DNA from: an uncultured Bacteroides sp.
GTDB lineage: Bacteria > Bacteroidota > Bacteroidia > Bacteroidales > Bacteroidaceae
Length of the DNA: 64,000 nt
Direction of reading: 5' to 3'
NCBI GenBank assembly: GCA_944322355.1
Contig: CALUOT010000003.1
Coordinates: 1,549 to 65,548 of the forward strand
How positions within the stretch are numbered: position 1 is the stretch's first letter; each line of letters begins with the position of its first letter. Under the pieces are notes generated by a model. The model was not told the DNA's origin. It worked only from the letters and a program-made list of their open reading frames with translations, and did not search any database. Shown here piece after piece: positions 2,482-58,660 of this stretch. Made by a program: the position numbers and the translations under genes.

Positions 2482-4704
2482 TTACATGCGTTCGTGGAAA
2501 CTACGCGAGATGACTTCCAGCTGATGTTCGCGGCTCAGCTTGATGAAGTTGACCGCATAGCCCGATACGCGGATGGTGAGTTGCGGGTATTTTTCAGGAT
2601 GCTCCATCGCGTCTTCCAGCATTTCACGGTTCAGCACGTTGACGTTCAGGTGATGAGCCCCCTTCACGAAGTAGCCGTCGGTCATGGTGACGAGGTTTTC
2701 GATGCGGTTTTCCCTATCTACGCCCAGCGACTTGGGTACGATGGAGAACGTATTGCTGATGCCGTCTTGCGAATCGCGATAGCGCAACTTGGCCACGGAA
2801 CTGAGTGAGGCGATGGCGCCGTTCTTGTCGCGTCCGTGCATGGGGTTGGCTCCCGGCGCGAAGGCTACGCCCTTGGCACGCCCGTCGGGGGTGGCGCCCG
2901 TCTTCTTGCCATACATCACGTTGGACGTAATGGTGAGGATGGAGAGCGTCGGCTTGGCATTTTTGTAGACGGGCAGCTTCTTCAGCTCTTCGTCAAAGTA
3001 GTAAATCAGGTCGACGGCCAGGTGGTCGACGCGGTCGTCGTCATTGCCGAAGCAAGGATATTCGCCTTCGATGTCGAAGCTTTCCGTCAGACCGATGTCA
3101 TTGCGTCGGGCGGTTACCCGGGCATACTTGATGGCCGACAGGGAGTCGATGGCGATGGACATGCCTGCCACGCCATAAGCCAGGTTGATGACCGGATCGG
3201 TGTCGATGAAGGCCATCTGCGCTTTCTCGTAGTAATACTTGTCGTGCATGTAGTGGATGATGTTCATCGCTTCGTTGTAGACGCGTGCCATCTCCTTGAG
3301 TACCTTCTTATAGTTGGCCAGCACTTCTTCGAAGTTCAGCACGTCGCCCGTCAGCACGGGGATGCCCTTCACCATCAGTGTGCCGGTATTTTCGCAACGT
3401 CCGCCGTTGATGGCCAGCAACAGAGCCTTGGCCAGGTTACACCGGGCACCGAAGAATTGGATATGACGGCCGATGTCCTGATAGGATACGCAGCAGGCGA
3501 TGCCATAGTCGTCCGAGCCACGTACTTCGCGCATCAGGTCGTCGTTTTCATACTGGATGGACGAGGTGTCGATGGAGACTTGTGCGCAGAAATTCTTGAA
3601 GCCTTCGGGCAGTTGAGGGCTCCACAACACGGTCAGGTTAGGTTCGGGCGATGGGCCTAAGTTATAGAGCGTTTGCAGGAAGCGGAAGGATGTCTTGGTC
3701 ACCTTCGTATGCCCGTCGTTGAATCGTCCGCCCAGTGCCTCGGTCACCCACGTCGGGTCACCTGCAAAGATGTCGGTATAGGCCTGCATGCGCAAGTGGC
3801 GCACCATGCGCAGCTTGATGACGAATTGGTCGATGAGCTCCTGTGCATGCGCTTCGTCCAACTTGCCTTGTGCCAGGTCATATTCGATGTAGATGTCGAG
3901 GAAGGAAGACACGTTGCCCAGCGACATGGCCGCTCCGTCTTGCTCTTTGACCGCCGCCAGATAGGCCATATAAACCCATTGCACGGCTTCTTGGGCCGAT
4001 TCGGCCGGCCGGCTGAGGTCTAAGCCATATTGTTCGCCCAGGGTTTTGATTTCTTTCAATGCCTTAATCTGTTCGGCCACTTCCTCACGCAGGCGGATGC
4101 GGGCGTCGGTCATAGGCCCGGTCAGGTTGCGCAAGTCATTTTGCTTGGCTTCTATCAGTCGGTCGATGCCATACAGGGCCAGACGCCGGTAGTCGCCGAT
4201 GATGCGTCCGCGTGCATAGTTGTCGGGCAATCCGGTGAGGAATCCCAACGAGCGGAAGGAACGGATCTCATCCGTATACGCATCGAACACACCATCGTTG
4301 TGCGTCTTACGGTAATGAGTGAAGATGTCTTTCACTTTCGGGTCAACTTCCATCCCGTTTTCGCGGCAGGCTTTCTCTACCACTTTGATGCCTCCGTACG
4401 GCTTGATGGCCCGACGCAACACTTCGTCGGTTTGCAAGCCCACAATCACTTCGTTTTCCCGGTCGATATATCCCGGAGCGAAGGAGGTGATGGTAGATAC
4501 CGTGGAAGGATCGAGCGAGCGCACACCGCCATTAGCCCGTTCTTCGGCCAAGGCTTCCAAGCACTTGCCCCACACGGCTTTGGTACGTTCGGTCGGCCCG
4601 GTCAGAAATGAGGCGTCGCCTTCGTAAGGAGTAATGTTTGTCTTTACGAAATCGGTCACGTTGATTTCATGGTTCCAACGACCTTCTTTGAAATTCATTG
4701 CCAT
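2482..4704 (-). CDS. pflB: Formate C-acetyltransferase (pyruvate formate-lyase)
   Basis: GIACCVS catalytic Cys pair and [10 protein letters not shown] glycyl radical motif; start taken at ATG 4704 (4698 also possible) rather than 4740. Confidence 0.97.
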
Positions 4705-4757
4705 AAGATAAAAATGGTTTTTAATGTAGTTTTTATACAAAATTTAATTTGGGGCGG

Positions 4758-25411: not shown

Positions 25412-27838
25412 TCAATGATTCTCTATCATTTCATTCCACAAATATACGGCCGGTACTTTATAAAATGATAATCCTTTACCAAACCAATTTAATCCTTTAC
25501 CTAATAATCCGCTTTCCGTATTATCAGTAAATGTAACTTCCACCTCATGTGCATGCTGCAAGTTGAAATGTACACGTGTTACCAACGTATCTGCCGGAGT
25601 TACAATAATCTTTTCTCCTTTCAATTCAGCAACACAATTCCATGTGCGCATGCTGCCATCTACACGTTCTATCACAAAAGCGTTGGGAATGAACATTTCT
25701 GCCAAAAAGCGGAAATGTTCATGAACATCGTTATCGCACGACCATCCGCGTTCTTTATTCCATACCACCTTATTTTCAGGCACACGCCACCAGTCACTTA
25801 TCATGGGTAACCATTGTTCGCCTATTACTTCATTAACGTATTTCCCTTCTCCGCCTTTTCTATAATCCTGAACAAACCGTTGGATTTTTACATACGGATC
25901 TGGCACAAAAGCCCATCTTAATTCACCTGTCATCAAGTCAATAGCTTGCGAACAACTTGCCATAGCATTAAAAGCTAAATTTAAATAATATTCATCGCCT
26001 GTAAGCAAATACAGATACATGGCTCCGAATTGCGATCTCATGGTCCATCCGTGAGGGGAATTCATCATGTTCCGGTTGATAAGCACGTCATATTGTGCTT
26101 CCCACCACCGCAAGGTTCCTCCACGCATCCGTGAGTCCGGAACAAGGGCTTGTGTAAGACATTCATGACGTTTTTGTACTTCCAAGCTTGCGTTCAGGAA
26201 ATGCGCCGTTTCATTATCGTCGCAGGCAGTCAGGGCATGCATGGCTAGCAAGCTCCATGCTGATCCCGCCTGTGTATCTTCGTAAGTCGCTTCGCCCTCG
26301 GTATCTCCCATGTCTTTCACTTCCAATATGTTGCGGGAAGCTGCCTCTACCGACCTCCGATGCTTTTCATAACGAGTCTTCCAGTATGTACTCTTCTTTG
26401 CCAATGGACTTTCAAACCACATTAGCTCTTGAATGAACTTAGCACCCATGGTCAACGCTGTATATCCCTTATACGCTCCATTAGGCAATTGAAAATCATC
26501 AATCAGCCGGTCTGCCCAATCAGCTGCAAGTTCCAAATGTTCTTGCTTTTGGGTAGCAGCATAACGGGCTATGAGGACACCAACCATCCACGATGTGTTT
26601 TGCGGACGTGAATGCCACGTTGACTTATTCGTATAATAAAACCCGGTCTTGGGGTCTATCATCACATTCCAAAACTGCTCAAAATTTCTTTCGGTTTGTT
26701 CCAGCATGTGTTGATTGGGGAAATACACCTGAGACCAATAAGCGCTGAAAAATCCCATCCAAGCCTCACGATGTGCTGCAGTTTTCTGTTCCATACGCAT
26801 CGCTTCCCTTCCTGCCTGCTGCAAATACCATCCCCACGGCTTACGTACATAAAGACTTGCTTCTGCACAATAGCCACCTGCCTCAGCCTGTATCTTATAA
26901 GTACCGGCGGTTTGGGGAGCCTTTAGCTCACAATGATAATCCGTGTCACTCTCATGACTCAACTGTATGTTCTCCTGTTGCCCGTCAGGAGCGATTATCG
27001 TAAGCTTTGGCGTTTCATCAGCTTGAGAAACAACGCGAATGTCAACCGTTTCTCCGACTGAGGCTGTAGTACGTTCCATATCAATTACCGGAATCGATAT
27101 GGATTCAGCCATTGCTTTGGGGATTTCTCCAATATCAGTCAATGGTAGCAGGACAAGTTTCCAAGTCTTAGTTTCATAAGGAGCCATATAAAATAAATCT
27201 TGTGGATGGCGTGGAGGCAAAGGCAATTCATGCAATAAATCAAGGCTTGCCGAAGCGATTCGATGACCATTACCTATGTAATTAAGGTGCCACGACGCTA
27301 TTGGGTCAGGAGAGGCTATACCTAACACGTGTCCGTCGGGGGCCTCGAAATATCCCCACAAATGGGTCTTTTCACATCGCAGCATTGTAGGGAAAAAGAC
27401 TGAAAAGTATTCATCCGGATTCGCCATGACCGTATTTATTCCCAAGCACAGGGAAGCCTTATCACTTGCATACTGCGGAACGCCGCTATTGTTTGTCAAT
27501 GACAATTGCAGAGTGAACATGCCGTTTTCTTCGGCATAGCGGATGGCATACGACATGGGATAAACTTCCCTGCTGGCATAAGTAAAGGCTTCTTTCTTGT
27601 GAAGCGATGTTCCGCTAAACGAAGGACCGGCATACTCGCCCGACGCATGCCAAGGTATTGAAACCAACTTGTCTCCGCCAAAATTCATTTTCAGTGATTG
27701 TATCATTCCCTTATTGGAAATCTCTGCCTCCCAGTCTCCGTTTGACGAGCGAAGAACCTCTTGTGCACGGAGTGAATGTAAGCATCCGGCTAATAATAGA
27801 GATAAAATAATAATCTTTGCATTCATTTTGGAATTCAT
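25412..27838 (-). CDS. Secreted 808-aa hypothetical protein, possible (alpha/alpha)6 glycoside hydrolase
   Basis: Signal peptide ending LRA-Q; beta-rich N-terminal half, helical Trp/Glu/Asp-rich C-terminal half; lies in a sugar locus. Family not recognised. Confidence 0.8.
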   Translation of the reverse strand: MNSKMNAKIIILSLLLAGCLHSLRAQEVLRSSNGDWEAEISNKGMIQSLKMNFGGDKLVSIPWHASGEYAGPSFSGTSLHKKEAFTYASREVYPMSYAIRYAEENGMFTLQLSLTNNSGVPQYASDKASLCLGINTVMANPDEYFSVFFPTMLRCEKTHLWGYFEAPDGHVLGIASPDPIASWHLNYIGNGHRIASASLDLLHELPLPPRHPQDLFYMAPYETKTWKLVLLPLTDIGEIPKAMAESISIPVIDMERTTASVGETVDIRVVSQADETPKLTIIAPDGQQENIQLSHESDTDYHCELKAPQTAGTYKIQAEAGGYCAEASLYVRKPWGWYLQQAGREAMRMEQKTAAHREAWMGFFSAYWSQVYFPNQHMLEQTERNFEQFWNVMIDPKTGFYYTNKSTWHSRPQNTSWMVGVLIARYAATQKQEHLELAADWADRLIDDFQLPNGAYKGYTALTMGAKFIQELMWFESPLAKKSTYWKTRYEKHRRSVEAASRNILEVKDMGDTEGEATYEDTQAGSAWSLLAMHALTACDDNETAHFLNASLEVQKRHECLTQALVPDSRMRGGTLRWWEAQYDVLINRNMMNSPHGWTMRSQFGAMYLYLLTGDEYYLNLAFNAMASCSQAIDLMTGELRWAFVPDPYVKIQRFVQDYRKGGEGKYVNEVIGEQWLPMISDWWRVPENKVVWNKERGWSCDNDVHEHFRFLAEMFIPNAFVIERVDGSMRTWNCVAELKGEKIIVTPADTLVTRVHFNLQHAHEVEVTFTDNTESGLLGKGLNWFGKGLSFYKVPAVYLWNEMIENH

Positions 27839-27854
27839 TATGTGTTTACGGGTG

Positions 27855-27919
27855 CAAAAGTACAGACAGTCTGGTATATAGGAAATGGACTGAATTAAAA
27901 AGAGAATGGACTATCTTAC
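27855..27919 (-). promoter_or_regulatory. Promoter of the 808-aa gene with tandem activator half-sites
   Basis: Minus strand reads GTAAGATAGTCCATTC-N13-GTCCATT-N21-TACTTTTG. Confidence 0.75.
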
Positions 27920-27952
27920 TAAATTTAAGTAGCTGCTTATAGTTACTTTATC

Positions 27953-28017
27953 GTAAGATTGTCCATTCCCTTTGGTTGATTCTCCATTTCTCATTTTATG
28001 CATTCTGTCTACCTTTG
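27953..28017 (+). promoter_or_regulatory. Promoter of the MFS-yphG-GH2-GH35 operon with tandem activator half-sites
   Basis: GTAAGATTGTCCATTC-N13-CTCCATT-N21-TACCTTTG; same geometry as the divergent promoter. Confidence 0.75.
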
Positions 28018-28060
28018 CAAGCGACAAAGGAACATTAACTTTTTTGATCTATATCGCAAC

Positions 28061-29419
28061 ATGGGAAGCTATAACAAAGGATTCATTTACTTCATCTGCC
28101 TGGTGTCGGCCATGGGCGGATTGCTGTTCGGATATGACTGGGTGGTCATCGGCGGCGCAAAGATTTTCTATGAACAGTTCTTCGGCATTGTGGGCAATCC
28201 GGCTTCGCAGGGGTTGGCCATGAGTATCGCCCTGGCGGGATGCCTCATCGGGGCACTGACTGCCGGTATACTGGCCGATAAGTTGGGACGTAAACCGCTG
28301 TTGTTGCTATCGGCTTTGGTCTTTGTGGTGACGGCCTATGGCACGGGAGCCTTCAGCGACTTCACCTGGTTCCTGGTGGCGCGGTTTGGCGGAGGCATTG
28401 CCATCGGTATCGCTTCGGGCCTCTCGCCCATGTACATTGCCGAAGTGGCGCCGGCGCAGATTCGCGGCAAGCTGGTGTCGCTCAATCAGCTGACCATCGT
28501 GGTCGGTATTCTGGCGGCACAGGTGGTCAACTGGTTGTTGGCGGGCGACGATCCTGCCTGGAATGTGGAACGGGCGTGGCGCTGGATGTTCTGGTCGGCC
28601 GCTTTCCCGGCAGGAGCTTTCCTCGTGCTGGCCGCTTTCATCCCGGAGAGTCCCCGTTGGTTGGCGTTGAAGGGTAGGAGGGAACAGGCTGTTGCTACGC
28701 TGACCCGCATCGGCGGGGCTGACTATGCGCAGAGCGAATTGGCCTCCCTGCAAGCCGATGCCCGTCAGGCACGGACCGAAGGCGGACTGCGCTTGCTCTT
28801 CAGTCGTCCTTACCGCCGGGTGCTGGTGCTGGGCATCGTGGTGGCCATGTTCCAGCAATGGTGTGGCACGAACGTCATCTTCAACTATGCACAGGAAATC
28901 TTCCAGTCGGCAGGCTACGACGTGGACAACACCTTTATTAATATTGTGGTGACGGGCATTGCCAACCTCGTGTTCACCTTCGTGGCCATCTATACGGTGG
29001 ACCGCCTGGGACGCCGGGCCCTCATGATGATAGGGGCGGGCGGACTGGCAGGCATCTACCTCATCCTGGGCACGTGCTACTATTTCGAGGTACACGGGGT
29101 CTTCATGGTGGTGCTGGTGGTGGCAGCCATCGCCTGCTATGCCATGTCGCTGGGACCGGTGACCTGGGTATTGCTCTCCGAAATCTTCCCCAACAAGGTG
29201 CGCGGCGTGGCCGTGGCTACGGGGACTTTCGCCCTGTGGGTGGCCAGCTTCATCCTGACGTACACCTTCCCCTTCCTCAATCAGGCATTGGGAACCTACG
29301 GCACGTTCTGGATTTACACCGCCATCTGCGCGGCAGGTTTCATCTTCTTCCTTTTCCGCTTGCCGGAGACCAAAGGAAAGTCGCTGGAGCAGTTGGAAAA
29401 GGAGCTGACGGGGAAGTAA
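28061..29419 (+). CDS. Sugar porter family MFS transporter
   Basis: GGLLFGYD, DKLGRK, PESPRW, QQWCGTN, DRLGRR, SEIFP, PETKGKSLE; start MGSYNK at 28061. Confidence 0.95.
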   Translation: MGSYNKGFIYFICLVSAMGGLLFGYDWVVIGGAKIFYEQFFGIVGNPASQGLAMSIALAGCLIGALTAGILADKLGRKPLLLLSALVFVVTAYGTGAFSDFTWFLVARFGGGIAIGIASGLSPMYIAEVAPAQIRGKLVSLNQLTIVVGILAAQVVNWLLAGDDPAWNVERAWRWMFWSAAFPAGAFLVLAAFIPESPRWLALKGRREQAVATLTRIGGADYAQSELASLQADARQARTEGGLRLLFSRPYRRVLVLGIVVAMFQQWCGTNVIFNYAQEIFQSAGYDVDNTFINIVVTGIANLVFTFVAIYTVDRLGRRALMMIGAGGLAGIYLILGTCYYFEVHGVFMVVLVVAAIACYAMSLGPVTWVLLSEIFPNKVRGVAVATGTFALWVASFILTYTFPFLNQALGTYGTFWIYTAICAAGFIFFLFRLPETKGKSLEQLEKELTGK

Positions 29420-29424
29420 CGGGA

Positions 29425-29562
29425 TGTGGTGCACCCACCACACTATGCTGTGGTGTACCTACCCTTGTCTACAAGGGGCTACCCACCCTTGCTTACTGTG
29501 GTGCACCTACCCTTGTCTACAAGGGGCTACCCACCACAGCCTACTGTGGTGCCCCCACCCTA
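29425..29562. repeat. Tandem repeat, about 6 x 24 bp with a 48-bp higher-order unit
   Basis: Units TGTGGTGCACCCACCACACTATGC, TGTGGTGTACCTACCCTTGTCTAC, AAGGGGCTACCCACCCTTGCTTAC, TGTGGTGCACCTACCCTTGTCTAC, AAGGGGCTACCCACCACAGCCTAC and a partial sixth. Confidence 0.92.
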
Positions 29563-29602
29563 TAAAAACAACGATCAGTCTAACTAAATACATCTATATA
29601 AT

Positions 29603-32600
29603 ATGGTAAAAGCTTGGAAAGAAACCATTATCATCCCCACCTATGAGGCGGGCACGCCGGAGAAGGCGCCCATGTTCCTGGAGAAACGGGTCTATCAGGG
29701 CAGCAGCGGCGTGGTCTATCCCTATCCGGTCATCGAGTCCATATCCGACACCAAAGAGGATAAAGCATACGAGGCGGTCTATCTGGAGAACGAGTACATC
29801 AAAGTGATGATTCTGCCCGAACTGGGCGGACGGGTACAGATGGCCTACGACAAACTGAAGCAACGTCACTTCGTCTACTACAACCACGTCATTAAGCCCG
29901 CGTTGGTCGGTCTGGCCGGGCCGTGGATTTCGGGTGGCATCGAGTTCAACTGGCCGCAACACCATCGCCCCAGCACCTACATGCCGGTGGATTGGCACAT
30001 CGAGCATCATGCCGACGGCAGTGCCACGGTGTGGGTCAGCGAGATGGAGCGTATGTTCCACCAGAAAGGCATGGCGGGCTTCACCCTGCGTCCGGGTCAT
30101 GCCTACCTGGAGATACGCGGCGTGCTGTACAACCGCACCGAAGTGCCGCAGACCTTCCTGTGGTGGGCCAATCCCGCCGTGGCTGTGAACGACGACTACC
30201 AGAGCGTCTTCCCGCCCGACATCCACGCCGTGTTCGACCATGGCAAGCGGGCGGTCAGCAGTTTCCCCATTGCCACGGGCACGTACTATAAGATGGACTA
30301 CTCTGCCGGGGTGGACATCTCGAACTACAAGAACATCAAAGTGCCCACGTCCTACATGGCCGTCAACTCGAAGTACGACTTCGAAGGCGGATACGAGAAC
30401 GACACCCGGGCCGGTATGCTGCATGTGGCCAGTCACCACGTGTCGTCCGGCAAGAAGCAGTGGACGTGGGGCAACGGCGATTTCGGTCGTGCCTGGGACC
30501 GCAATCTGACCGACGAGGACGGGCCGTACATCGAGCTGATGGCCGGCGTGTACACTGAGAACCAGCCCGACTTCACCTGGCTGATGCCCTACGAGGAGAA
30601 GAGCTTCACGCAGTATTTCTTGCCCTATCGCGAACTGGGTATCGTGAAGAATGCCACGAAAGACCTGCTGCTGAACATCGACCCGGTCGGAGAAGGCCGT
30701 GTGCGCTTCAAGGTGTTCGCCACGTCCCTACAAACGGTAGACATCACGCTGCGCTCGGACGACGGACAGGTCTATTGGCAGCGGGAAGTCACCCTCAGCC
30801 CCGAAACCTTGCTGGACGAAACCGCCGACGTGCAGGGTACACCGATGAACCGGCTGAATCTCGTGATTAGCAAGGCAGGCCGTGAAGTGCTGACCTGGCA
30901 TGCCGAACCCGATGAGGTGACACCTCTGCCCGATGCTGCCGAAGCCGCCCTGCTGCCCGAGGAAATCAAGACCACCGAGCAACTCTATCTGACGGGGCTA
31001 CACCTGGAGCAATATCGTCACGCCACGTATAATCCGGTGGACTACTACGAAGAAGCCCTCCGTCGAGACCCTATGGATGTGCGCAACAACAACGCCCTCG
31101 GTTTATGGTACCTGCGTCGTGGACGTTTCGACCGGGCCGAAGGCTACCTGCGTACGGCCGTGAAGGTGCTGATGAAGCGCAATCCCAATCCCTATGATGG
31201 CGAACCCCTCTATAACCTCGGTCTCGCGCTGAAGTATCAAGGCCGCCTGGACGAAGCCTATAAGTGGTTCTATAAGTCCACGTGGAATGCCGCCTGGCAA
31301 GATGCCGGCTACTTCTCCTGTGCCCAAATCTCTACTCGTCAAGGTCGCCTGGATGATGCCTTGTATGAAGTGGAGCAAGCCCTTATCCGCAACTGGCACA
31401 ACCACAAGGCCCGTGCCCTGAAAGCAACGCTCCTTCGTCGCCAAGGCCGGACGGAAGAAGCCCTGCGTTGGATAGACGAGTCGTTGGCCATCGATGCCTT
31501 CAACTTCGGTTGTCTCTGCGAGAGGTATTGGATAGACCACGACCCGGCGGTGCTGGTGGAACGTATGCGCGACAATGCCCACAACTACGATGAGATAGCC
31601 ATCGACTACTGTGCAGCCGGTTGCTGGGACGAAGCCGCTGCCCTATGGAAGCTGGCAGAAGAGCGTAATGCTGTTACGCCCATGACCTACTATTACTTAG
31701 GCTGGTGCCTGACGCAGGCCGGGAAAGAGGAAGACGCTGCCTTGGCCTTCCGCCGTGCTGCCGCCGCTTGTCCCGACTACTGTTTCCCCAACCGGCTGGA
31801 AGCTGTCCTGGCTCTCCGTTGTGCCATGCAGCACCATCCCGAAGACGCCCGTGCCCCTTACTACCTGGGCAATCTGTACTACGACAAGCGTCAGTACGAC
31901 CTGGCTCGCGAGGCATGGCACACGTCCGCCGACAAAGACGCTACGTATCCTCTTGTCTGGCGCAACCTGGCGCTGGTCTATCTCAATAAGCTACAGGACG
32001 AACCGCATGCCGTGGAGTATATGGAGAAAGCCTTCCACCTCAATCCCACCGATGCCCGTGTGCTGATGGAGTTGGACCAACTTTACAAACGCCTTCGTCG
32101 TCCCCATGCCGAACGGTTGGCCTTCCTGCGTCAGTATCCGGAGTTAATCCGGCAGCGCGACGACTTGTTGCTGGAGGAAGCTACGTTGCTCAACCAGACC
32201 GGTGCCTATCGCGAAGCTATGCAACGGATTGACGGCCATCACTTCCATCCTTGGGAGGGAGGCGAAGGCAAGGTGTCCGGACAGTATCAGTTCTCCCGTG
32301 TCGAGTTGGCCAAAGAAGCCCTGAATGAGGAACGTCCTGCCGAAGCTTATGCCCTGTTGGAGCAATGCCTCACCTATCCGCATCACTTGGGCGAAGGCAA
32401 GCTGTATGGGGCACAGGAAAGCGACTTCTACTACCTGATGGGTTGTGCCTGCGAGGCGATGGGACAACAGGAAAAGGCTATCGAATGCTGGGAGAAAGCC
32501 ACTGTAGGCCCCACGGAACCGGCCGCTGCCCTTTACTACAACGATGCCAAGCCCGACAAGATCTTCTACCAGGGTCTGGCGCTGCGTAAACTGGGACGGG

Positions 32601-32896
32601 AGGCCGAAGCCCGCGGACGCTTCCACAAACTCATTTCCTATGGCGAGAAGCACCTGTTCGACCAAGTACGCATGGACTACTTTGCCGTTTCCTTGCCCGA
32701 TCTGCTCATCTGGGACGATAGCCTGGATACCCGCAACGTGGTGCATTGCAAGTACATGATGGCGTTGGGTCATTTCGGCTTGGGCGATGAGGCCAAAGGT
32801 CACCAATTGCTGGATGAAGCTTGGAAGTTGGATAGCAACCATCTGGGCATTTACAGCACGTATACATTAACCCACACCCAAATTCCACAACCATGA
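29603..32896 (+). CDS. yphG: DUF5107/TPR protein, homolog of E. coli YphG
   Basis: RVYQGSSGVVYPY, LENEYIKVMILPELGGR, IKPALVGLAGPWISGGIEFNWPQHHRP recalled as closely matching E. coli YphG; long TPR C-terminal half; no signal peptide. Confidence 0.88.
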   Translation: MVKAWKETIIIPTYEAGTPEKAPMFLEKRVYQGSSGVVYPYPVIESISDTKEDKAYEAVYLENEYIKVMILPELGGRVQMAYDKLKQRHFVYYNHVIKPALVGLAGPWISGGIEFNWPQHHRPSTYMPVDWHIEHHADGSATVWVSEMERMFHQKGMAGFTLRPGHAYLEIRGVLYNRTEVPQTFLWWANPAVAVNDDYQSVFPPDIHAVFDHGKRAVSSFPIATGTYYKMDYSAGVDISNYKNIKVPTSYMAVNSKYDFEGGYENDTRAGMLHVASHHVSSGKKQWTWGNGDFGRAWDRNLTDEDGPYIELMAGVYTENQPDFTWLMPYEEKSFTQYFLPYRELGIVKNATKDLLLNIDPVGEGRVRFKVFATSLQTVDITLRSDDGQVYWQREVTLSPETLLDETADVQGTPMNRLNLVISKAGREVLTWHAEPDEVTPLPDAAEAALLPEEIKTTEQLYLTGLHLEQYRHATYNPVDYYEEALRRDPMDVRNNNALGLWYLRRGRFDRAEGYLRTAVKVLMKRNPNPYDGEPLYNLGLALKYQGRLDEAYKWFYKSTWNAAWQDAGYFSCAQISTRQGRLDDALYEVEQALIRNWHNHKARALKATLLRRQGRTEEALRWIDESLAIDAFNFGCLCERYWIDHDPAVLVERMRDNAHNYDEIAIDYCAAGCWDEAAALWKLAEERNAVTPMTYYYLGWCLTQAGKEEDAALAFRRAAAACPDYCFPNRLEAVLALRCAMQHHPEDARAPYYLGNLYYDKRQYDLAREAWHTSADKDATYPLVWRNLALVYLNKLQDEPHAVEYMEKAFHLNPTDARVLMELDQLYKRLRRPHAERLAFLRQYPELIRQRDDLLLEEATLLNQTGAYREAMQRIDGHHFHPWEGGEGKVSGQYQFSRVELAKEALNEERPAEAYALLEQCLTYPHHLGEGKLYGAQESDFYYLMGCACEAMGQQEKAIECWEKATVGPTEPAAALYYNDAKPDKIFYQGLALRKLGREAEARGRFHKLISYGEKHLFDQVRMDYFAVSLPDLLIWDDSLDTRNVVHCKYMMALGHFGLGDEAKGHQLLDEAWKLDSNHLGIYSTYTLTHTQIPQP

Positions 32897-35643
32897 GAAA
32901 ACAACGAATCTTATGCAGCCTTCTGGCTGCGCTGAGCCTGATGTGTCAGGCACAAGTGATAGATCTGGCAGGTCGATGGCGTTTTGCCATCGACCGCGAA
33001 GACAAGGGAGTGGCCGAACAATGGTATCTCCGTGAATTGGGAGACGAAGTACAGTTGCCCGGCTCCATGTTGACCAATGGCAAGGGCGATCCCGTGGATC
33101 TGCAAACACCTTGGGTGGGAAGCATGAACGACAGTACGTTCTTCAAGGCAGACCATTATGCCCCTTATCGTAAGGCGGATAACTTTAAAGTGCCTTTCTG
33201 GCTACAGCCCGACCTGTACTATGCCGGTGTGGCTTGGTATCAGCGTGACGTTGACATCCCGAGAGAGTGGCAAGGCCAATCCGTGCACTTGACTATGGAA
33301 CGCTGTCACTGGGTAAGCCGGGTATGGGTAGATGGGCAAGAAGTGGGTACACAAAATGCCTTGAGTGCTCCTCATATCTACGACTTGACTTCCTATCTGA
33401 CTCCCGGTAAGCACACCCTCAGTATCCGGGTGGACAATGCGATTCGGAATATCGATCCCGGTGAGAATTCTCATTCTATATCAGACCATACACAAGGCAA
33501 TTGGAACGGGATAGTGGGCGATATGGTCTTGAAAGCTCAGGGTAGCACCTATTATCGGCAAGTGGATGTCTATCCTCAAGTTGATAAAGGTGTGGTGTTG
33601 GTAAAGACCCGCATCTGTAATATAAAGGATAAACGCCAGCGGGTACAAGCGGCTTTCCGTATAGGTGAAGGCTCTCCCGTACAGAAAAAGGTGCAGGTAG
33701 AGCCGGGTGATAACTACGTGGAAGTTACGCTTCCCCTACCTGCCGATGTGCAGTTGTGGGATGAGTTCCATCCTCATCTTTATCAGTTGGAATGCACTCT
33801 CGTGCAAGGCAAAAAGACGATGGACGAGCATCAAGTCACTTTCGGATGCCGCACCTGGAGCGTGGAAGAAGGGGAACTCCTGCTGAACGGACATCCGGTC
33901 TACATGCGTGGGACGCTTCATTGTGCTTCCTTCCCACTGACAGGCTATCCGGCCACGGATAAGGAAGAATGGATGCGTGAATTTCGCATCTGCAAGCAAT
34001 ATGGCATCAATCATATCCGTTTCCACTCCTGGTGTCCGCCCGAAGCTGCTTTTGAAGCTGCCGACGAGTTGGGGCTTTACTTGATGATTGAATGCTCTTC
34101 CTGGGCCAACCAGTCTACTACGATTGGCGACGGTGGTCCGTTGGATGAGTTTATCCATCAAGAGGCCGAACATATCGTGAATGCCTTCGGCAATCATCCA
34201 TCGTTCTGCATGATGGCCTATGGCAATGAACCTGCCGGAAAGCATCACAAGGAATATTTGAGTGATTTTGTCAGCTATTGGAAAGAGCACGACTCCCGTC
34301 GTTTGTATACCAGTGCCGCCGGATGGCCCAATCTGCCTGTCAATGATTTCCTCAGCGACTCTAATCCGCGTATCCAGCAGTGGGGAGCCGGATTGAAAAG
34401 CATCATCAATGCGAAGGAACCTTCTACTACCTACGATTGGCGTGACTATACCGGACAGTTCACCCAACCTTTCATCAGTCACGAGATAGGCCAATGGTGT
34501 GTATATCCAGCCTTTAAGGAGATGAAGAAGTATACAGGTGTCTACAAGCCACGTAATTTCGAAATCTTCCAAGCCACGCTCGAAGCCAATGGTATGGGAC
34601 AACTAGCCGATGACTTCCTGTATGCTTCCGGACGGCTGCAAACCCTTTGCTACAAGGCTGATATTGAAGCAGCCTTGCGCACCCCTCGCTTTGGAGGTTT
34701 CCAACTGCTGGGCTTGAACGATTTCCCCGGACAAGGCACGGCGCTAGTCGGTACGCTCGATGCTTTCTGGGAAGAAAAAGGTTATGTCACTCCGGAAGAG
34801 TACAGCCGTTTTTGTAGTCCTTTGGTGCCGTTGGCACGTATTCCTCGCTTGGTGATGGATAATGACGAACCTTTCGATGCTACCGTGGAAGTAGCCAACT
34901 ACTATCAGCCTATCCGGCATCCTAAAGCCGGTTGGGCTATCCGCGATGCACAAGGGAAGACGTTGGCACAAGGCACTTTTGATATACCTCAACTGGAACT
35001 GGGCAATGGCTTACCGTTGGGTTCTGTCCATTTCGATACAAGCCTCATTCGGGAAGCTTCCCAACTGAAACTGGTGGTCAACGTGGAAGGCTATTCCAAT
35101 GATTGGGACTTCTGGGTATATCCGGCGCAGAAACAGCAATTGACCGGAGATGTCTTGCTGACCGATACGTTGGATCAACGCGCCATGGATTGTTTGCAGG
35201 CCGGCGGACGGGTTTTGCTTTCCATCCGCAAGGGGCACTTGAGCCCCGACCTGGGAGGCGATGTGGCGGTAGGTTTCAGCAGCATCTTCTGGAATACTTC
35301 ATGGACCAACGGGCAAGCACCCCATACGTTAGGCATCTTGTGCGACCCTGAGCATCCGGCGTTGAGCGATTTCCCTACCGAGTCTTACAGTAATTATCAG
35401 TGGTGGGATGCCATGCACTATGGCAGTGCCATTCATTTGGGGAAGTTGGACAGACCGGTTCAGCCCTTGGTCAGAGTCATAGACGATTGGTTCACCAACC
35501 GCCCGCTGGCTTTGCTTTTTGAGGTGCAGGTGGGCCAAGGCAAGTTGTTGGTGTCGGGTATCGATTTCCATCAAGACATGGAGCATCGTCCGGCAGCCCG
35601 TCAGTTGCTTTACAGTTTGCAGCGTTATCTGCTGGATGATTAA
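32893..35643 (+). CDS. Glycoside hydrolase family 2
   Basis: Signal peptide; sugar-binding N-domain (YAGVAWYQR, WNGIVG), GINHIRFHSW, GNHPSF..GNE (acid/base), SHEIGQW (nucleophile). Confidence 0.9.
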   Translation: MRKQRILCSLLAALSLMCQAQVIDLAGRWRFAIDREDKGVAEQWYLRELGDEVQLPGSMLTNGKGDPVDLQTPWVGSMNDSTFFKADHYAPYRKADNFKVPFWLQPDLYYAGVAWYQRDVDIPREWQGQSVHLTMERCHWVSRVWVDGQEVGTQNALSAPHIYDLTSYLTPGKHTLSIRVDNAIRNIDPGENSHSISDHTQGNWNGIVGDMVLKAQGSTYYRQVDVYPQVDKGVVLVKTRICNIKDKRQRVQAAFRIGEGSPVQKKVQVEPGDNYVEVTLPLPADVQLWDEFHPHLYQLECTLVQGKKTMDEHQVTFGCRTWSVEEGELLLNGHPVYMRGTLHCASFPLTGYPATDKEEWMREFRICKQYGINHIRFHSWCPPEAAFEAADELGLYLMIECSSWANQSTTIGDGGPLDEFIHQEAEHIVNAFGNHPSFCMMAYGNEPAGKHHKEYLSDFVSYWKEHDSRRLYTSAAGWPNLPVNDFLSDSNPRIQQWGAGLKSIINAKEPSTTYDWRDYTGQFTQPFISHEIGQWCVYPAFKEMKKYTGVYKPRNFEIFQATLEANGMGQLADDFLYASGRLQTLCYKADIEAALRTPRFGGFQLLGLNDFPGQGTALVGTLDAFWEEKGYVTPEEYSRFCSPLVPLARIPRLVMDNDEPFDATVEVANYYQPIRHPKAGWAIRDAQGKTLAQGTFDIPQLELGNGLPLGSVHFDTSLIREASQLKLVVNVEGYSNDWDFWVYPAQKQQLTGDVLLTDTLDQRAMDCLQAGGRVLLSIRKGHLSPDLGGDVAVGFSSIFWNTSWTNGQAPHTLGILCDPEHPALSDFPTESYSNYQWWDAMHYGSAIHLGKLDRPVQPLVRVIDDWFTNRPLALLFEVQVGQGKLLVSGIDFHQDMEHRPAARQLLYSLQRYLLDD

Positions 35644-35746
35644 CGCGTGGGGTATTATCAAGGGTCACGCGTGACCTCCGGATGGCTGTTTGGAGATATA
35701 TTTTGTTGAACTATTATTTACCTTTATTTTAAACTTGTTTAGTATC

Positions 35747-37768
35747 ATGAAATCGATTTATTTAATCGGGCTTTTAGCCTGGTTGGGTGCCTTACCGATG
35801 TGGGGACAAACCTTTGGGCAACGTGTTGAATGGGATGCACAAAGTTTGTTTTTTGACGGGAAGCGCGTAGTGCCCGTTATGGGCGAGATTCACTATTCGC
35901 GTCTGCCGGCAGAAGAATGGCGTACGGAATTGCAGAAGATGAAGGCGGGCGGTGTGACTCTCGTGGCCAACTATGTGTTTTGGAATCATGTGGAAGAGAC
36001 GGAAGGTATCTTCAATTGGAGCGGCCAGCGTTCATTGCGGCATTTCCTGGAGTTATGCAAGGAAGAGGGATTGCCGGTGGTGCTGCGCATCGGTCCTTTC
36101 TGCCATGGGGAAGTTCGTAATGGTGGAATCCCCGACTGGGTGATTCAGAAGGAAGGCATCAAGCTGAGAAGTGAGGACCCGCAATTCCTCCGCTATGTGA
36201 GCCAACTCTATCGGCAAATCTTCACACAGGCTCAAGGTCTGCTTTGGAAAGATGGAGGTCCCGTTTTGGCTTGCCAGTTCGATAACGAATACAGAGGTGA
36301 AGGCTCTTATTTGATGACTTTGAAGCGCATCGCCCAAGAGATCGGTTTTGATTTACCTTTCTATACCCGTACCGGATGGCCGGAATTGAAATCTCCTGTT
36401 CCGTATGGGGAAATGATTCCGCTCTATGGCGACTATGCGGATGGTTTCTGGGAGCGCAGTATCGAGGAAACGGCTGGAAGTTACTGGAAGGCTTTCAACT
36501 TCAAAGCATTCCGTTCGTCGACGGCCATTGCCAGTGAACAACTGAAAGAGGGAAACGGTAAAATCACGGCAGGCGATGAACTGTATCCTTACTTTACGTG
36601 CGAATTGGGCGGCGGTATGATGACCAGTTACCATCGTCGGGTCTATCTTTATCCGGAAGATGCTTATTCGTTGGCCATCGTGAAGTTAGGTTCCGGTTCC
36701 AACCTGTTGGGATATTACATGTATCATGGCGGTACCAATCCGGAGGGTATTACTTACCTGAACGAAACCCAACGAACTCTTTCTACGAATTATAACGATT
36801 TGCCGGTCAAGACGTACGATTTCCAGGCTCCTTTGGGAGAGTTCGGGCAAAAGAACTCGCATTACTATACGTTGCGTAAGATTCATTTGTTCTTGCAAGA
36901 CTATGGCGAAGTGTTGGCGCCGATGGAAGCCGAGTTTCCTCAAGCCGACCAACCTCAGGCGAAAGGGGTGGATAGCTATTTGCGGTGGAGCTACCGGCAG
37001 AAAGATAATAGTGCCTTTGTCTTTGTCAATAACTACGAACGCTTGCAACATCTTTCCGCCAAAAAAGGAGTCCGTTTTGAGGTGTGTGGTGTTAAGTTCC
37101 CGAGGAAGTCGTTGACTATTCCTGCCGGTACGGCTTGTATCTTCCCCGTCAACATCGATGGTATTCGCTATGCGACGGCCCAATTGATAGCCAAACGTGA
37201 TGGTAAAATCTATTTAGAGCAAATAGAAGGCATTCCGACAGAGATAGCTGTAGGAGATAAGGTGCTGAAAAATGTCAAAGCGTTGGGCAAAGATACTCCG
37301 GTTTATGAAAACATTTATTTACTTTCTCCTGATGAGGCTGGACGTCTATTCTTGCCGGAAGAAACGAAAGAGGAGAAAATGCAGGTGGTCAGCTTCCGGA
37401 AAGTGAAAGAAGCCGGTAGCCCTCGTACGATAACAATGGGGGTAGCCGGTGTGGCCGAGGAGCCGGTAGATGCCGATTTCGACCAAGCTGCTGTCTATAC
37501 GATTGACATTCCGCAACAGAAAGGCTTGTTGCACATCCGCTATCAAGGCGACTGTGCCCGTCTGTATGTCGATGGGAAGTTAGTGGCTGACAACTTCTAT
37601 AACGGCCGTGAATTCCTTTACGGATTATGGCGCTTGCCTGAAGGGGCGCAGAAACTGGAACTGCGCATTCTGCCTATGCAGGAAGACATGCCTGTCTATT
37701 TCCCCCGTGAGGCCGATACGACACCGGGCGAGAAAGTCCTGTCGTGTGAAGTTTCCGAAAGATGGTAA
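35747..37768 (+). CDS. Glycoside hydrolase family 35 (beta-galactosidase-like)
   Basis: GEIHYSR, YVFWNHVE, RIGPFCHGEVRNGGIPDW, QFDNEY, TCELGGG, YYMYHGGTN, YDFQAPLGE; start MKSIY at 35747. Confidence 0.92.
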   Translation: MKSIYLIGLLAWLGALPMWGQTFGQRVEWDAQSLFFDGKRVVPVMGEIHYSRLPAEEWRTELQKMKAGGVTLVANYVFWNHVEETEGIFNWSGQRSLRHFLELCKEEGLPVVLRIGPFCHGEVRNGGIPDWVIQKEGIKLRSEDPQFLRYVSQLYRQIFTQAQGLLWKDGGPVLACQFDNEYRGEGSYLMTLKRIAQEIGFDLPFYTRTGWPELKSPVPYGEMIPLYGDYADGFWERSIEETAGSYWKAFNFKAFRSSTAIASEQLKEGNGKITAGDELYPYFTCELGGGMMTSYHRRVYLYPEDAYSLAIVKLGSGSNLLGYYMYHGGTNPEGITYLNETQRTLSTNYNDLPVKTYDFQAPLGEFGQKNSHYYTLRKIHLFLQDYGEVLAPMEAEFPQADQPQAKGVDSYLRWSYRQKDNSAFVFVNNYERLQHLSAKKGVRFEVCGVKFPRKSLTIPAGTACIFPVNIDGIRYATAQLIAKRDGKIYLEQIEGIPTEIAVGDKVLKNVKALGKDTPVYENIYLLSPDEAGRLFLPEETKEEKMQVVSFRKVKEAGSPRTITMGVAGVAEEPVDADFDQAAVYTIDIPQQKGLLHIRYQGDCARLYVDGKLVADNFYNGREFLYGLWRLPEGAQKLELRILPMQEDMPVYFPREADTTPGEKVLSCEVSERW

Positions 37769-55478: not shown

Positions 55479-55571
55479 TTAAAATAGTGTGATAAAATGA
55501 ATGGTTTGCCGGCTCGTTTTGAGTCGGCAGGCCAGAGTTACATCCTTTTTTTAACATTAAATTTTAAATGT

Positions 55572-58500: not shown

Positions 58501-58646
58501 GTTTGTATGTAAGTGGGCAGAATCTGTATAGCTTTAATGGTTTTTATAAAGGTTGGGATCCTGAAAATGAGATTGGAACAGGAGATGCTCCTTCTTATTA
58601 CCCGACTACGGCTGTTTATTCTTTTGGACTTAATCTTAATTTCTAA
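55572..58646 (+). CDS. susC: SusC/RagA TonB-linked outer-membrane transporter
   Basis: LDEVVVVGYGTQKK, LKDAASASIYGNRAANGVILIETKKG, RYDGSSRF, C-terminal GLNLNF; start MEDLL at 55572. Confidence 0.96.
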   Translation: MEDLLGKKRIHIIRLVFLLMILFVGSVQAQGQGLVKGTVTDGNGEPLIGVSILVKGTDNGVVSDLDGRFSIAANVGDVISFSYVGYVTQDLQVPGNQMMNVVLEEDTKRLDEVVVVGYGTQKKVNLTGAVSSVTSDDLINKPVMSTAQAIAGLAPGLSVVSNSGRPGAGATVKIRGTGTFSSAGTDPLVLIDGISGSIDDVDPNDIQSISFLKDAASASIYGNRAANGVILIETKKGASGKTSVSYNASFGWQNATELPDFLPSWEYATYYNMAMSNMGLADAYSAEQIQKYRDGSDPDNYPNVNHLKWLLESGSGFQHQHNVSVRGGNEKINYSVSIGYRKQDGITAETSNERMTAVLSLQSQLSNSLSLNLNVNAYNNKYNAPNGEPQSIDGMIGYAVRQGPIYAGQKSDGTFGYQDNYSPEAWLAGESFVENISRNISAAAQLKWETPVEGLSLTGKAGVNYWTKYDKAYRAETYFDESKTVGPSALNVWTANNTYTTFEALANYEKQIKEHNLKVLVGTSVEQTKNRGLEGYRNTFPNNYLYELGSGDASTATNNSSTEEYALVSFFGRVNYAFKDRYLLEGNLRYDGSSRFSEDNRWGLFPSVSAGWRISEEDFWKETEISNAFDNLKLRVSYGVLGNQNIGIYPYQQTYDLGHNYPLGNPATLVPGAYVSTYKNQDITWEKTAITNVGLDFGMLNGVVNGSVEYFYKYTSDILAPVEVTGIMGRSVGESNVGAVSNKGIEVNLSFNGHIGKDFRFSIAPNFTWVKNAVEELANGATEEINNNRIVGEPIGIIYGYQTDGLFVDQAEIDAAPEQLVGKSDLKPGYVKYKDISGPNGVPDGKVDAEYDRTVLGSTTPKFYYGLNLSASYKGFDFSALLQGLGGYQRLIGSYMAYAFYNGGQIQRWQAENCWTVENPDKWAEYPRIETLNMNNTNLQTSDYWMRNANFLRIKNVQIGYTFPKSWTRKIGIENLRLYVSGQNLYSFNGFYKGWDPENEIGTGDAPSYYPTTAVYSFGLNLNF

Positions 58647-58660
58647 ATTCTTTAAAAGAT

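Follow-up and report, generated by a model that had tools for sequence, protein, structure and literature searches.

A sister family of PL27 lyases beside a Bacteroides beta-galactosidase operon is a candidate new family of carbohydrate-active enzymes

What does an exported protein of 808 residues, in which no GH or PL motif is recognized, do beside two beta-galactosidase genes? The question is raised by one gene, whose product is termed P0001 here, in a stretch of 64,000 nucleotides from an uncultured Bacteroides sp. that was analysed as a whole and is referred to as the window. The initial annotation described the product as a secreted orphan and proposed that it is an (alpha/alpha)6-type hydrolase of a possibly unassigned family that acts with GH2 and GH35 enzymes. 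We examined the open reading frame and its export signal, the extent and conservation of its family, its predicted fold, its relationship to characterized enzymes, and its genomic context in the window and in related genomes.

Results

The open reading frame of P0001 is uninterrupted over its 808 codons and lies on the minus strand, which the initial annotation had not specified (Table 1). A signal peptide with Gln at the +1 position had been noted from the sequence and is supported by close orthologues, which keep the junction [AS]-x-[AS]/Q-[DEN]-[IV]-L-R-S (cleavage at the slash), and residues 5-24 are helical in the AlphaFold model. A lipoprotein reading based on the lipobox-like L-A-G-C19 was rejected, as Cys19 is not conserved among the orthologues. 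P0001 is probably exported to the periplasm. The gene is indeed more AT-rich than the divergently transcribed MFS gene (GC 0.446 and GC3 0.42, versus GC 0.581 and GC3 0.75), but it is not a compositional oddity since its GC content is near the window mean of 0.482; it is the MFS and DUF5107 genes that stand out in composition.

Table 1. Features of the P0001 locus, with positions in the window and the evidence for each.
Feature	Position	Strand	Evidence
AraC-family regulator (cupin sensor and HTH), downstream of P0001	24362..25351	-	Pfam
P0001 ORF, 808 aa	25412..27838	-	uninterrupted ORF and translation; homologues; model; fold and profile matches to PL27
Additional C-terminal beta-sandwich, residues 719-808	25415..25684	-	strands 719-786 in model; PL27 alignment stops at 719
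Beta-hairpins and last helix with C-D-N-D-V-H-E, residues 640-716	25691..25921	-	VIA-align range; conservation
(alpha/alpha)6 barrel, residues 335-630	25949..26836	-	model; VIA-align; hhalign; conservation
Ig-like beta domain, residues 250-331, linking sandwich to barrel; also in PL27	26846..27091	-	model; hhalign
N-terminal beta-sandwich, residues 27-233	27140..27760	-	model secondary structure; hhalign columns; conservation in 265 sequences
Signal peptide, residues 1-25, signal peptidase I type, mature N-terminus Gln26	27764..27838	-	conserved cleavage junction
Operator serving both P0001 and the MFS operon: two direct pairs of AATGGAC-type half-sites (four in all, 21-nt spacing) that mirror each other	27875..27989	.	
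Sugar-porter MFS transporter (XylE/GalP type), divergent from P0001	27998..29419	+	Pfam, NCBIfam
DUF5107-TPR protein (YphG-like), cytoplasmic	29603..32896	+	Pfam; model pTM 0.80; Foldseek
GH2, exported, subfamily GH2_20 (8U01-like beta-galactosidase type)	32893..35643	+	Pfam, among others
GH35 beta-galactosidase, exported	35690..37768	+	Pfam, among others

P0001 is not an orphan. At least 855 homologous clusters were found, with 423 representatives at 50% identity, and 383 relatives are present in species-representative genomes that span about ten phyla. The family includes cytoplasmic forms as well as giant cell-surface forms. It has no name in the databases searched, with nothing above threshold for P0001 in Pfam, NCBIfam or the PDB sequences, and the absence of a recognized GH or PL motif thus extends to the lack of any GH or PL model at threshold in Pfam and NCBIfam and of any PDB sequence match. 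To that extent the suggestion of an unassigned family was borne out. GH47, GH76, GH88 and GH127 gave weak repeat-level matches only in the Pfam, NCBIfam and PDB sequence and profile searches. GH47 was the only Pfam match of P0001 and was rejected as an assignment because its score lies under the Pfam gathering threshold (17.4 bits versus a cut-off of 22.9, over a fragment of 109 residues, in one of the 45 family members to which the Pfam tests of the family profile, A1, were applied). One homologue (P0027) carries a UniRef name that suggests a GH78 alpha-L-rhamnosidase; none of the 45 members matched a GH78 Pfam model at E < 0.01, and no GH78 chain is among the Foldseek and VIA-align matches listed.

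Conservation was measured on an alignment of 265 family members. The four motifs quoted in the initial annotation, EGEATYEDTQ (residues 514-523), RGGTLRWWEAQYD (572-584), NSPHGW (593-598) and GWSCDNDVHE (698-707), are all present and form the most conserved columns. Approximately 40 residues are near-invariant across the ten or so phyla, about 23 of them polar. They include nine invariant carboxylates (E156, E358, E514, E520, D521, D568, E580, E674 and E707) and four invariant histidines (H192, H558, H596 and H706).

The AlphaFold model of P0001 is of high confidence (pLDDT 93.1, pTM 0.92) and runs from a beta-sandwich through an Ig-like domain and the (alpha/alpha)6 barrel to an additional C-terminal beta-sandwich. 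The model and the fold searches confirm the proposed (alpha/alpha)6 fold, with a correction to its placement: the helices described as a C-terminal region form the central barrel, and the C-terminus is beta-rich. Eleven long helices and one short one (581-584) make up the barrel, in which every other helix is preceded by a conserved loop motif (R411-Q-N414, Q450/Y459, T513-E-G-x-x-T-x-E-D521, D568-x-R570...R577-[FWY]-W-E580-x-Q-Y-D584 and S594-P-H-G-W598), with conserved motifs immediately ahead of helices 412, 465, 521 and 599. A double barrel of twelve helices with conserved residues on the loops before the inner helices is the hallmark of the six-hairpin glycosidase superfamily and is seen in P0001, and the placement of the motifs suggests that the conserved residues share one central pocket. 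In the N-terminal sandwich R154, E156, H192, R210 and H211 are invariant and family-specific, and the Ig-like domain gave a weak Filamin repeat match in three family members. D702, N703, D704, H706 and E707 are conserved in the C-D-N-D-V-H-E motif. The last domain is kept across phyla in the family alignment and has no Por_Secre_tail match in Pfam.

Among solved structures, one matches P0001 over the whole chain. The best Foldseek match is to 5nok/5no8 (E 3e-24 over 686 columns, with the runner-up at 6.6e-8), and VIA-align superimposed residues 33-719 of the model on residues 26-694 of 5no8_A (Z 30.6, rmsd 3.5 A, 597 residues), the remaining matches being confined to the barrel with Z of 22 or less. 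5NO8 is a PL27 lyase, and in that family an N-terminal beta-sandwich leads into an (alpha/alpha)6 barrel (PMC8377490); the P0001 model has this arrangement too, with a probable central pocket. The PL27 enzymes BT0263, BACCELL_00875 (PDB 5NO8/5NOK) and BACFIN_07013 are L-rhamnose-alpha1,4-D-glucuronate lyases with the same beta-sandwich/Ig-like/(alpha/alpha)6 plan and, like P0001, PL27 enzymes are exported and belong to Bacteroidota glycan loci. The Pfam family DUF5695 (PF18951) corresponds to the characterized PL27 lyases.

At the barrel level P0001 also resembles other enzymes, at Z values of 17-22. GH88 and GH105 (UGL 1VD5, YteR 1NC5) share the (alpha/alpha)6 barrel and central pocket (barrel Z 17-20.5) and gave sub-threshold profile matches, and like the P0001 family they are found in pectin-type loci and, in Bacillota, directly after ABC importers. 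However, they lack the N-terminal sandwich, the Ig domain and the C-terminal domain, and there is no significant sequence relationship. GH76 alpha-1,6-mannanases and the epimerases and isomerases of the AGE superfamily have the six-hairpin barrel (Z 20-22) with weak repeat-level sequence matches, but again the match is to the barrel only and no accessory domain is in common. Since the best barrel-only matches after PL27 are cellobiose 2-epimerase, mannose isomerase and N-acylglucosamine 2-epimerase (Z 21-22), and four histidines are invariant, P0001 might be an AGE/cellobiose-2-epimerase-type sugar epimerase or isomerase, or else a six-hairpin protein that binds glycans without catalysis. We regard such non-cleaving roles as very improbable. 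The epimerase matches tie with those of GH76, GH88 and GH105, P0001 is exported, probably to the periplasm, as are the oligosaccharide-cleaving enzymes of these loci, glycoside hydrolases and importers dominate its context, and the number and phyletic spread of the near-invariant, largely polar residues point to catalysis rather than binding.

Profile comparison shows remote homology between the P0001 family and the PL27 (DUF5695) lyases. With a PL27 profile (A2) built from a genuine PL27 protein (L043, E 1.3e-269 to 5no8), hhalign aligned the two families with 97.3% probability (E 2.4e-11, 474 columns). This is the only sequence method that joins them. PF18951 had no match at E < 0.01 to P0001 or any of the 45 family members, plain HMMER cross-scores were 7-21 bits compared with the DUF5695 cut-off of 25.2 bits (at most 21 bits for the PL27 HMM against the family and 13 bits for the family HMM against PL27), 5NO8 was missing from the PDB profile search with the family up to E 10, and identity is 13-15%. 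At the sequence level P0001 therefore falls outside PL27, and the Pfam, NCBIfam, PDB and profile searches gave no confident assignment to a characterized CAZy family. Two other apparent links to PL27 were discarded. PL27 proteins do not carry DUF4450 (PF14614); the protein with that domain in this genome is a pectinase of GH28-like type that has a 4e0e-type module at its C-terminus. Weak A1 profile matches in related genomes proved to be GH127, GH9 or an unassigned protein of 637 residues (L022) rather than PL27.

The residues conserved in the two families overlap in part. Invariant in both are Q450, Y459, E520, R577, W579, E580, P595, H596 and W598 in P0001 numbering, and about half of the PL27-invariant barrel-loop residues are kept (Q427, Y446, E538, R590, W592, D593, P608, H609 and W611). 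Both families also have a P...C...H-x-W loop in the N-terminal domain (P150...C155...H159-x-W161 in P0001) and a D/N-D motif near the C-terminus, where the alignment ranges suggest that the C-D-N-D-V-H-E segment corresponds to N-D-Q-D-W of PL27 (invariant residues N675, D676 and D678). In contrast, P0001 has other residues where PL27 has invariant H591, Y610, Y448, N536, E391 and R392. His591 becomes Phe, Trp or Tyr (position 578) and Tyr610 (L043 numbering) becomes Gly or Ala (Gly597 in P0001) in all 265 members, Tyr448 becomes Ala in P0001, and the D-E-G-A-E-R loop, which reads R-P-Q-N-T-S in P0001, is replaced family-wide. Of six PL27-invariant tyrosines only Y446, equivalent to Y459 of P0001, is still Tyr. 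The P0001 family has its own invariant set instead (R154, E156, H192, E514, D521, D568 and R570), a far wider phyletic range, and a C-terminal beta-sandwich of about 90 residues that has no counterpart in PL27. Munoz-Munoz and co-workers reportedly proposed, in 2017, that a tyrosine is the catalytic base of PL27, and the lost Tyr610 may be that base; the literature searched yielded no PL27 catalytic residue numbers. Nor did it yield any mention of 5NOK/5NO8, a function for DUF5695 or a new PL27-related family.

It could be argued from the whole-chain structural match and the remote homology that P0001 is simply a divergent PL27 enzyme, a rhamnose-cap lyase acting on arabinogalactan-protein side chains with the specificity of BT0263 and BACCELL_00875, and the downstream beta-galactosidases would suit the degradation of such side chains. 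This is most unlikely given the HMMER scores below the cut-off, the low identity, the replacement of the invariant His, Tyr and loop in 265 of 265 members, and the additional C-terminal domain. Moreover, genuine PL27 occurs as a separate gene beside family members in related genomes (for example, G042), which argues for distinct functions. Since the homology is remote, the HMMER link is absent and the His and Tyr are replaced throughout, we consider the P0001 family to be an uncharacterized sister family of PL27.

In the window, P0001 is transcribed divergently from an operon encoding the sugar porter, the mutarotase-like protein and the two beta-galactosidases, and shares an AraC-type operator with it. 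The promoter architecture that the initial annotation saw in common between P0001 and the MFS gene proved to be this symmetric operator in the intergenic region between them, and three of the six exact copies of the AATGGAC-type sequence in the 64 kb fall within 86 bp of that region. Scans for sigma-70-type promoters and terminators, which do not cover Bacteroidota promoters, performed no better than on shuffled sequence. The AraC regulator probably starts at the Met at about 25249, and the GH35 enzyme has a probable start at Met20 (about 35747). The N-terminal domain of the DUF5107 protein has a galactose-mutarotase-like fold with Foldseek matches to 5cd6 and GalM enzymes; the literature search returned no described function for DUF5107 or YphG. 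DUF5107 (YphG) is a very common protein, and here its mutarotase-like domain is placed in a galactose-harvesting operon.

Neighbourhoods of orthologues were read from related loci using our own ORF calling. In Prevotella, Pedobacter, Pelobium and a Chitinophagaceae MAG the orthologue has AraC, MFS and DUF5107 genes beside it, with an order that varies, and this recurrent linkage together with the common operator supports the suggested functional association with GH2 and GH35. In congeneric genomes the AraC gene directly abuts the MFS operon and P0001 is absent. Since the AraC-MFS-DUF5107-GH2 unit lacks P0001 in most congeneric genomes, the protein is an accessory to it. GH106, GH43, GH29, GH92 and GH2 recur around family members. 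One locus (L056) has the order GDSL esterase, GH2, GH53, family gene, GH2, PL4. The closest relative in a representative genome (L052) has a GH88/105 gene 41 bp upstream in the same operon, together with DUF5123, an HTCS sensor and SusC/D, and the adjacent GH88/105 suggests sequential rather than redundant roles. In other loci GH92, GH20 and GH29 adjoin the family gene, pointing to mannose- or host-type glycans rather than pectin. In Paenibacillus the family proteins lack a signal peptide, and their gene comes after an ABC importer and encodes the sole enzyme of the operon, which suggests a substrate of oligosaccharide size. When the Pfam matches of 145 other neighbouring ORFs were pooled, neither uronate-catabolism genes nor a recurrent partner emerged. 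A GH88/105 neighbour was found in one of 79 loci, and this test for lyase chemistry was judged uninformative because the contigs of the four genuine PL27 genes examined carry no strong GH88/105 gene either.

Discussion

We propose, as the reading that we hold to be rather probable, that P0001 is an exported PL27-sister enzyme that uncaps acidic plant-glycan oligosaccharides in an exo-acting manner and serves the GH2_20/GH35 operon. Acting in the periplasm through its central pocket, it would strip a terminal blocking residue off acidic oligosaccharides of the rhamnogalacturonan-I or arabinogalactan type. GH2_20 and GH35 would then free galactose, to be imported by the MFS porter and mutarotated by the DUF5107 protein. 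The changed residues may re-tune P0001 to another cap or uronate, such as Rha-alpha1,4-GalA.

The (alpha/alpha)6 part of the proposed (alpha/alpha)6-type hydrolase stands. The hydrolase part does not follow, as the only characterized relative, recognized only by structure and profile-profile comparison, is the lyase PL27. For P0001, lyase and hydrolase chemistry are about equally likely, with some PL27 core residues kept and others missing, and the invariant carboxylates, as read from the alignment, would fit a glycoside hydrolase as well as a lyase. Tyr, His and Arg are the typical set of a metal-independent lyase, and we lean slightly and weakly towards beta-elimination at a uronic acid by the retained Tyr459/His596/Arg577 core, with hydrolysis nearly as likely.

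As a tentative alternative, less favoured than the proposal above, P0001 is an exo-acting uncapping hydrolase that founds a new GH family diverged from a PL27-like ancestor. The residues in common with PL27 would then form the -1 sugar pocket, and family-specific carboxylates such as E514, D521, D568, E580 or D584 would provide the acid/base and the nucleophile or base. Such an enzyme would account for the family-wide replacement of His591, Tyr610 and the D-E-G-A-E-R loop and for the nine invariant carboxylates, and hydrolases and isomerases make up most of the (alpha/alpha)6 enzymes with a barrel match. Its conserved partners (the sugar porter, the mutarotase-like protein and the beta-galactosidases) handle neutral sugars, the Paenibacillus operons lack an unsaturated-uronate hydrolase, and the neighbouring ORFs tallied contain no uronate catabolism. 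However, the sole characterized homologue is a lyase, both families keep Tyr459, His596 and Arg577 without exception, the closest relative among the representative genomes has GH88/105 in its operon, and one orthologue lies in a PL4-containing operon.

Taken more broadly, we see a little less than an even chance that the P0001 family is a new CAZy family that arose from a PL27-like ancestor, either by a switch from lyase to hydrolase or by an elimination re-tooled for another uronate (for example, exo-cleavage at Rha-alpha1,4-GalA of the RG-I backbone). In the latter case the PL27 Tyr/His pair would give way to Arg570 together with a cluster of acidic residues (E514, E520, D521 and D568).

P0001 is thus a good candidate for a new family of carbohydrate-active enzymes. 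PL27, a small family with a single known activity, is now tied to a larger and taxonomically broader sister family that is nameless in the databases searched, has a different set of active-site residues, and has members in plant-glycan utilization loci of gut, soil and aquatic bacteria. Together they are a natural scaffold pair for the interconversion of lyase and hydrolase, or of syn and anti elimination. Characterizing a single member would probably establish a new CAZy family, and it could close a gap in how the complex side chains of pectins or arabinogalactans are broken down. If so, current pectin and arabinogalactan schemes would lack an uncapping enzyme that is present in hundreds of species of about ten phyla, including gut Bacteroidales.

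Gene, export and spread of the P0001 family

The initial annotation was largely right in what it observed about P0001, the 808-aa exported protein, with three corrections: the reading frame, 808 uninterrupted codons, is real but lies on the minus strand; the helical part is present but central, not C-terminal; and the protein is not an orphan. We found at least 855 homologous 90% clusters, 423 representatives at 50% identity and, in species-representative genomes, 383 relatives spanning Bacteroidota, Verrucomicrobiota, Planctomycetota, Lentisphaerota, Acidobacteriota, Armatimonadota, Bacillota, Spirochaetota and others. Hardly any of the homologues is a named entry. The four motifs singled out earlier all occur in P0001, on the most conserved columns of a 265-member alignment. 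The absence of a recognized GH or PL motif was likewise confirmed: the sole Pfam match was a GH47 fragment (17.4 bits, below the cut-off of 22.9), NCBIfam and PDB sequence searches gave no match, no Pfam model recurs among the 45 alignment members, and the family profile reaches GH76 and GH88 at E∼0.2–0.4 at best.

The Cys of the lipobox-like L-A-G-C19 in P0001 is absent from its closest orthologues, which keep the junction [AS]-x-[AS]/Q-[DEN]-[IV]-L-R-S. A lipoprotein is therefore disfavoured, and cleavage by signal peptidase I, giving the Gln at +1 that was originally noted, is the better reading.

One cluster (P0054, 1296 aa) fuses the P0001-family domain to sulfatase domains, and in some Clostridia the domain lies inside cell-surface proteins of 1,500–2,200 residues with signal peptides (L084, L102, L104, L118 and L122), which suggests varied substrates, some of them sulfated. 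Neither a Pfam family nor a relative among PDB sequences matches a 637-aa protein of genome G040 that weakly hits the family profile (E 0.007) and that could represent a further six-hairpin protein without assignment.

Features of P0001, of genes on its contig and of related loci, with neighbours of P0001-family genes. G000 is the source genome.
Feature	Location	Strand	Remarks
P0001 gene	window 25412-27838	−	GC3 0.42
Signal helix	P0001 N-terminus		AlphaFold2 model
Beta-sandwich	P0001 residues 27-233		AlphaFold2 model
Ig-like domain	P0001 residues 250-331		AlphaFold2 model
Twelve-helix (alpha/alpha)6 barrel	P0001 residues 335-630		AlphaFold2 model
Beta-hairpins and final helix	P0001 residues 640-716		AlphaFold2 model
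Additional beta-sandwich	P0001 residues 719-790		AlphaFold2 model
MFS and DUF5107 genes	window 27998-32896		GC3 0.75 and 0.72
DUF5107-TPR gene	window 29603-32896	+
Gene, provisionally pflB-like	window 2482-4740		GC3 0.72
SusC/SusD	window 55497-60358		GC3 0.28-0.31
GH127 beta-L-arabinofuranosidase and strong GH88/105 gene	G000 C3:83640-83891 (L002, ~18 kb past window end) and C3:75414-76427
692-aa GH28-like pectinase (5olp-like), DUF4450 as C-terminal module (4e0e-like)	L005:1489-3567, G000 contig C10	−
PL27 reference gene	L043:835-2910, G042		691-aa product
637-aa protein	L022:1222-3135, G040	+
GH92 directly adjacent to family gene	L054, L057, L058, L063
GH2 neighbour of family gene	10 loci
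GH106 neighbour of family gene	L055, L074, L075
GH43 neighbour of family gene	L053
GDSL esterase, GH2, GH53, family gene, GH2, PL4	L056		Verrucomicrobiales MAG
GH88/105 41 bp upstream, with DUF5123, HTCS, SusC/D	L052	same	Bacteroides MAG, 65% identity

Predicted fold and relationship to PL27

An AlphaFold2 model of P0001, computed from a 45-sequence alignment (pLDDT 93.1, pTM 0.92), bears out the (alpha/alpha)6 fold proposed earlier, as do two structural comparisons. Foldseek against the PDB placed 5NOK/5NO8 ('Polysaccharide Lyase BACCELL_00875') first (E 3e-24, 686 columns; runner-up 6.6e-8), and VIA-align, which is independent of Foldseek, aligned residues 33–719 of the model with 26–694 of the 5NO8 chain (Z 30.6, rmsd 3.5 Å over 597 residues). 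The remaining VIA-align matches (Z≤22) cover the barrel only and comprise AGE-type epimerases, GH76, GH88, GH105 and thioester domains. BACCELL_00875 is one of three characterized PL27 L-rhamnose-alpha1,4-D-glucuronate lyases, which combine an N-terminal beta-sandwich with an (alpha/alpha)6 barrel (PMC8377490).

A reference PL27 set was obtained from an ESM-Atlas look-alike search, which led to DUF5695, and a DUF5695 search of related genomes, which led to L043, a locus of genome G042. Since the protein encoded at L043 hits 5NO8 with E 1.3e-269 and PF18951 is present in all of that protein's homologues (P0266–P0385), DUF5695 covers PL27, and Pfam still labels it a domain of unknown function. 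DUF4450 (PF14614) was rejected as the PL27 domain; in the source genome it belongs to a GH28-like pectinase.

Profile–profile comparison of the P0001 family with the PL27/DUF5695 profile gave 97.3% probability (E 2.4e-11) over 474 columns of sandwich, Ig domain and barrel, and was reproduced, whereas plain HMMER cross-scores were only 7–21 bits and no P0001-family member reached the DUF5695 model. Hence the family is a genuine but remote PL27 relative and, by the sequence criterion of CAZy and Pfam, a sister family and not a member.

Active-site residues

Residues were mapped through the hhalign columns of the two profiles, with conservation taken from the family alignments and PL27 residues numbered as in L043. 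The invariant positions common to the two families are the N-domain loop P150...C155...H159-x-W161 and (P0001/L043) Q450/Q427, Y459/Y446, E520/E538, R577/R590, W579/W592, E580/D593, P595/P608, H596/H609 and W598/W611. In addition, C-D-N-D-V-H-E of P0001 probably corresponds to the C-terminal N-D-Q-D-W of PL27, judging from the VIA-align ranges. However, PL27-invariant H591 is replaced by F/W/Y578 and Y610 by G/A597 (His and Tyr, respectively, in 0 of 265 sequences), Y448 by Ala461, N536 by Thr518, and the D-E-G-A-E-R loop by R-P-Q-N-T-S. Invariant in the P0001 family only are R154, E156, H192, E358, E514, D521, H558, D568, R570, E674, H706 and E707.

The conserved barrel residues lie in loops just before helices 412, 465, 521 and 599 and in the long 563–598 loop. 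In six-hairpin enzymes those loops form the pocket, which these residues, from their loop positions, would line. A switch to hydrolysis, or to another elimination geometry, would fit the missing His/Tyr pair and the abundance of invariant carboxylates, and a lyase mechanism would fit the Tyr/His/Arg trio that is kept. We lean slightly towards a lyase.

Operon and gene context

P0001 is divergent from an operon encoding a sugar-porter MFS protein, a DUF5107-TPR protein, a GH2 and a GH35, with an AraC-family regulator just downstream on its own strand. The 159-bp P0001/MFS intergenic region holds four AATGGAC-type half-sites in two mirror-image direct pairs with 21-nt spacing, in line with the shared promoter architecture described earlier, and three of the six exact half-site copies in the whole window. 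P0001 is indeed more AT-rich than the MFS gene (GC 0.446 versus 0.58), but against the window mean of 0.482 the outliers are MFS and DUF5107 (also 0.58). GC at third codon positions (GC3) likewise differs strongly along the window, with MFS and DUF5107 close to the pflB-like gene and far above P0001 and SusC/SusD, a pattern that may stem from expression level or from gene transfer.

The GH2 is 8U01-like and falls in GH2_20, reported as beta-galactosidases acting on decorated plant glycans; the GH35 resembles beta-galactosidases, and both share the Gln +1 signal peptide of P0001. The DUF5107 protein, of a very common (YphG-like) type, has no signal peptide. Its first 480 residues fold (pTM 0.80) as a galactose-mutarotase-like supersandwich, matching uncharacterized 5cd6/BDI_1685 and then many aldose 1-epimerases (GalM), with H121, D238 and E311 invariant across 14 diverse homologues. 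With two beta-galactosidases for export, a porter for monosaccharides and a mutarotase-like protein in the cytoplasm, the operon would serve to harvest galactose. The contig neighbourhood is rich in plant-glycan enzymes, including beyond the window a GH127 closely matching PDB 6EX6 (1186 bits, ∼650 residues).

In four congeneric genomes (G131:C23, G124:C23, G138:C36, G136:C41) AraC adjoins the MFS-DUF5107(-GH2) operon, ∼155 bp apart, with no P0001 match, and 11 of 121 sampled genomes of the same taxonomic family encode a genuine member of the P0001 family. P0001 is therefore accessory, and lies between regulator and shared promoter through either insertion or lineage-specific retention. An orthologous subgroup (≥49% identity) is repeatedly linked to AraC-MFS-DUF5107 in Prevotella, Pedobacter, Pelobium and a Chitinophagaceae MAG in differing gene orders, which argues for a functional link and not a frozen block. 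Paenibacillus members lack a signal peptide; their gene follows those for a sensor kinase, AraC-type response regulator, solute-binding protein and two permeases and encodes the sole enzyme there, so that these members would act on imported oligosaccharides. GH88/105 adjacency, seen at 1 of 79 loci, does not discriminate, being equally absent near the four genuine PL27 genes examined. Among 145 further neighbours scanned together, no family recurred.

Proposed role

The initial interpretation was partly right: the fold and the link to GH2/GH35 hold, and P0001 is better described as belonging to a sister family of PL27 lyases. We consider it rather likely that P0001 is a periplasmic exo-acting enzyme that would take a blocking residue off acidic plant-glycan oligosaccharides, after which the co-regulated beta-galactosidases could proceed. 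The family, unassigned as first proposed judging from Pfam, NCBIfam and PDB sequence searches, is a variant sister of the characterized PL27 lyases and a candidate new CAZy family.
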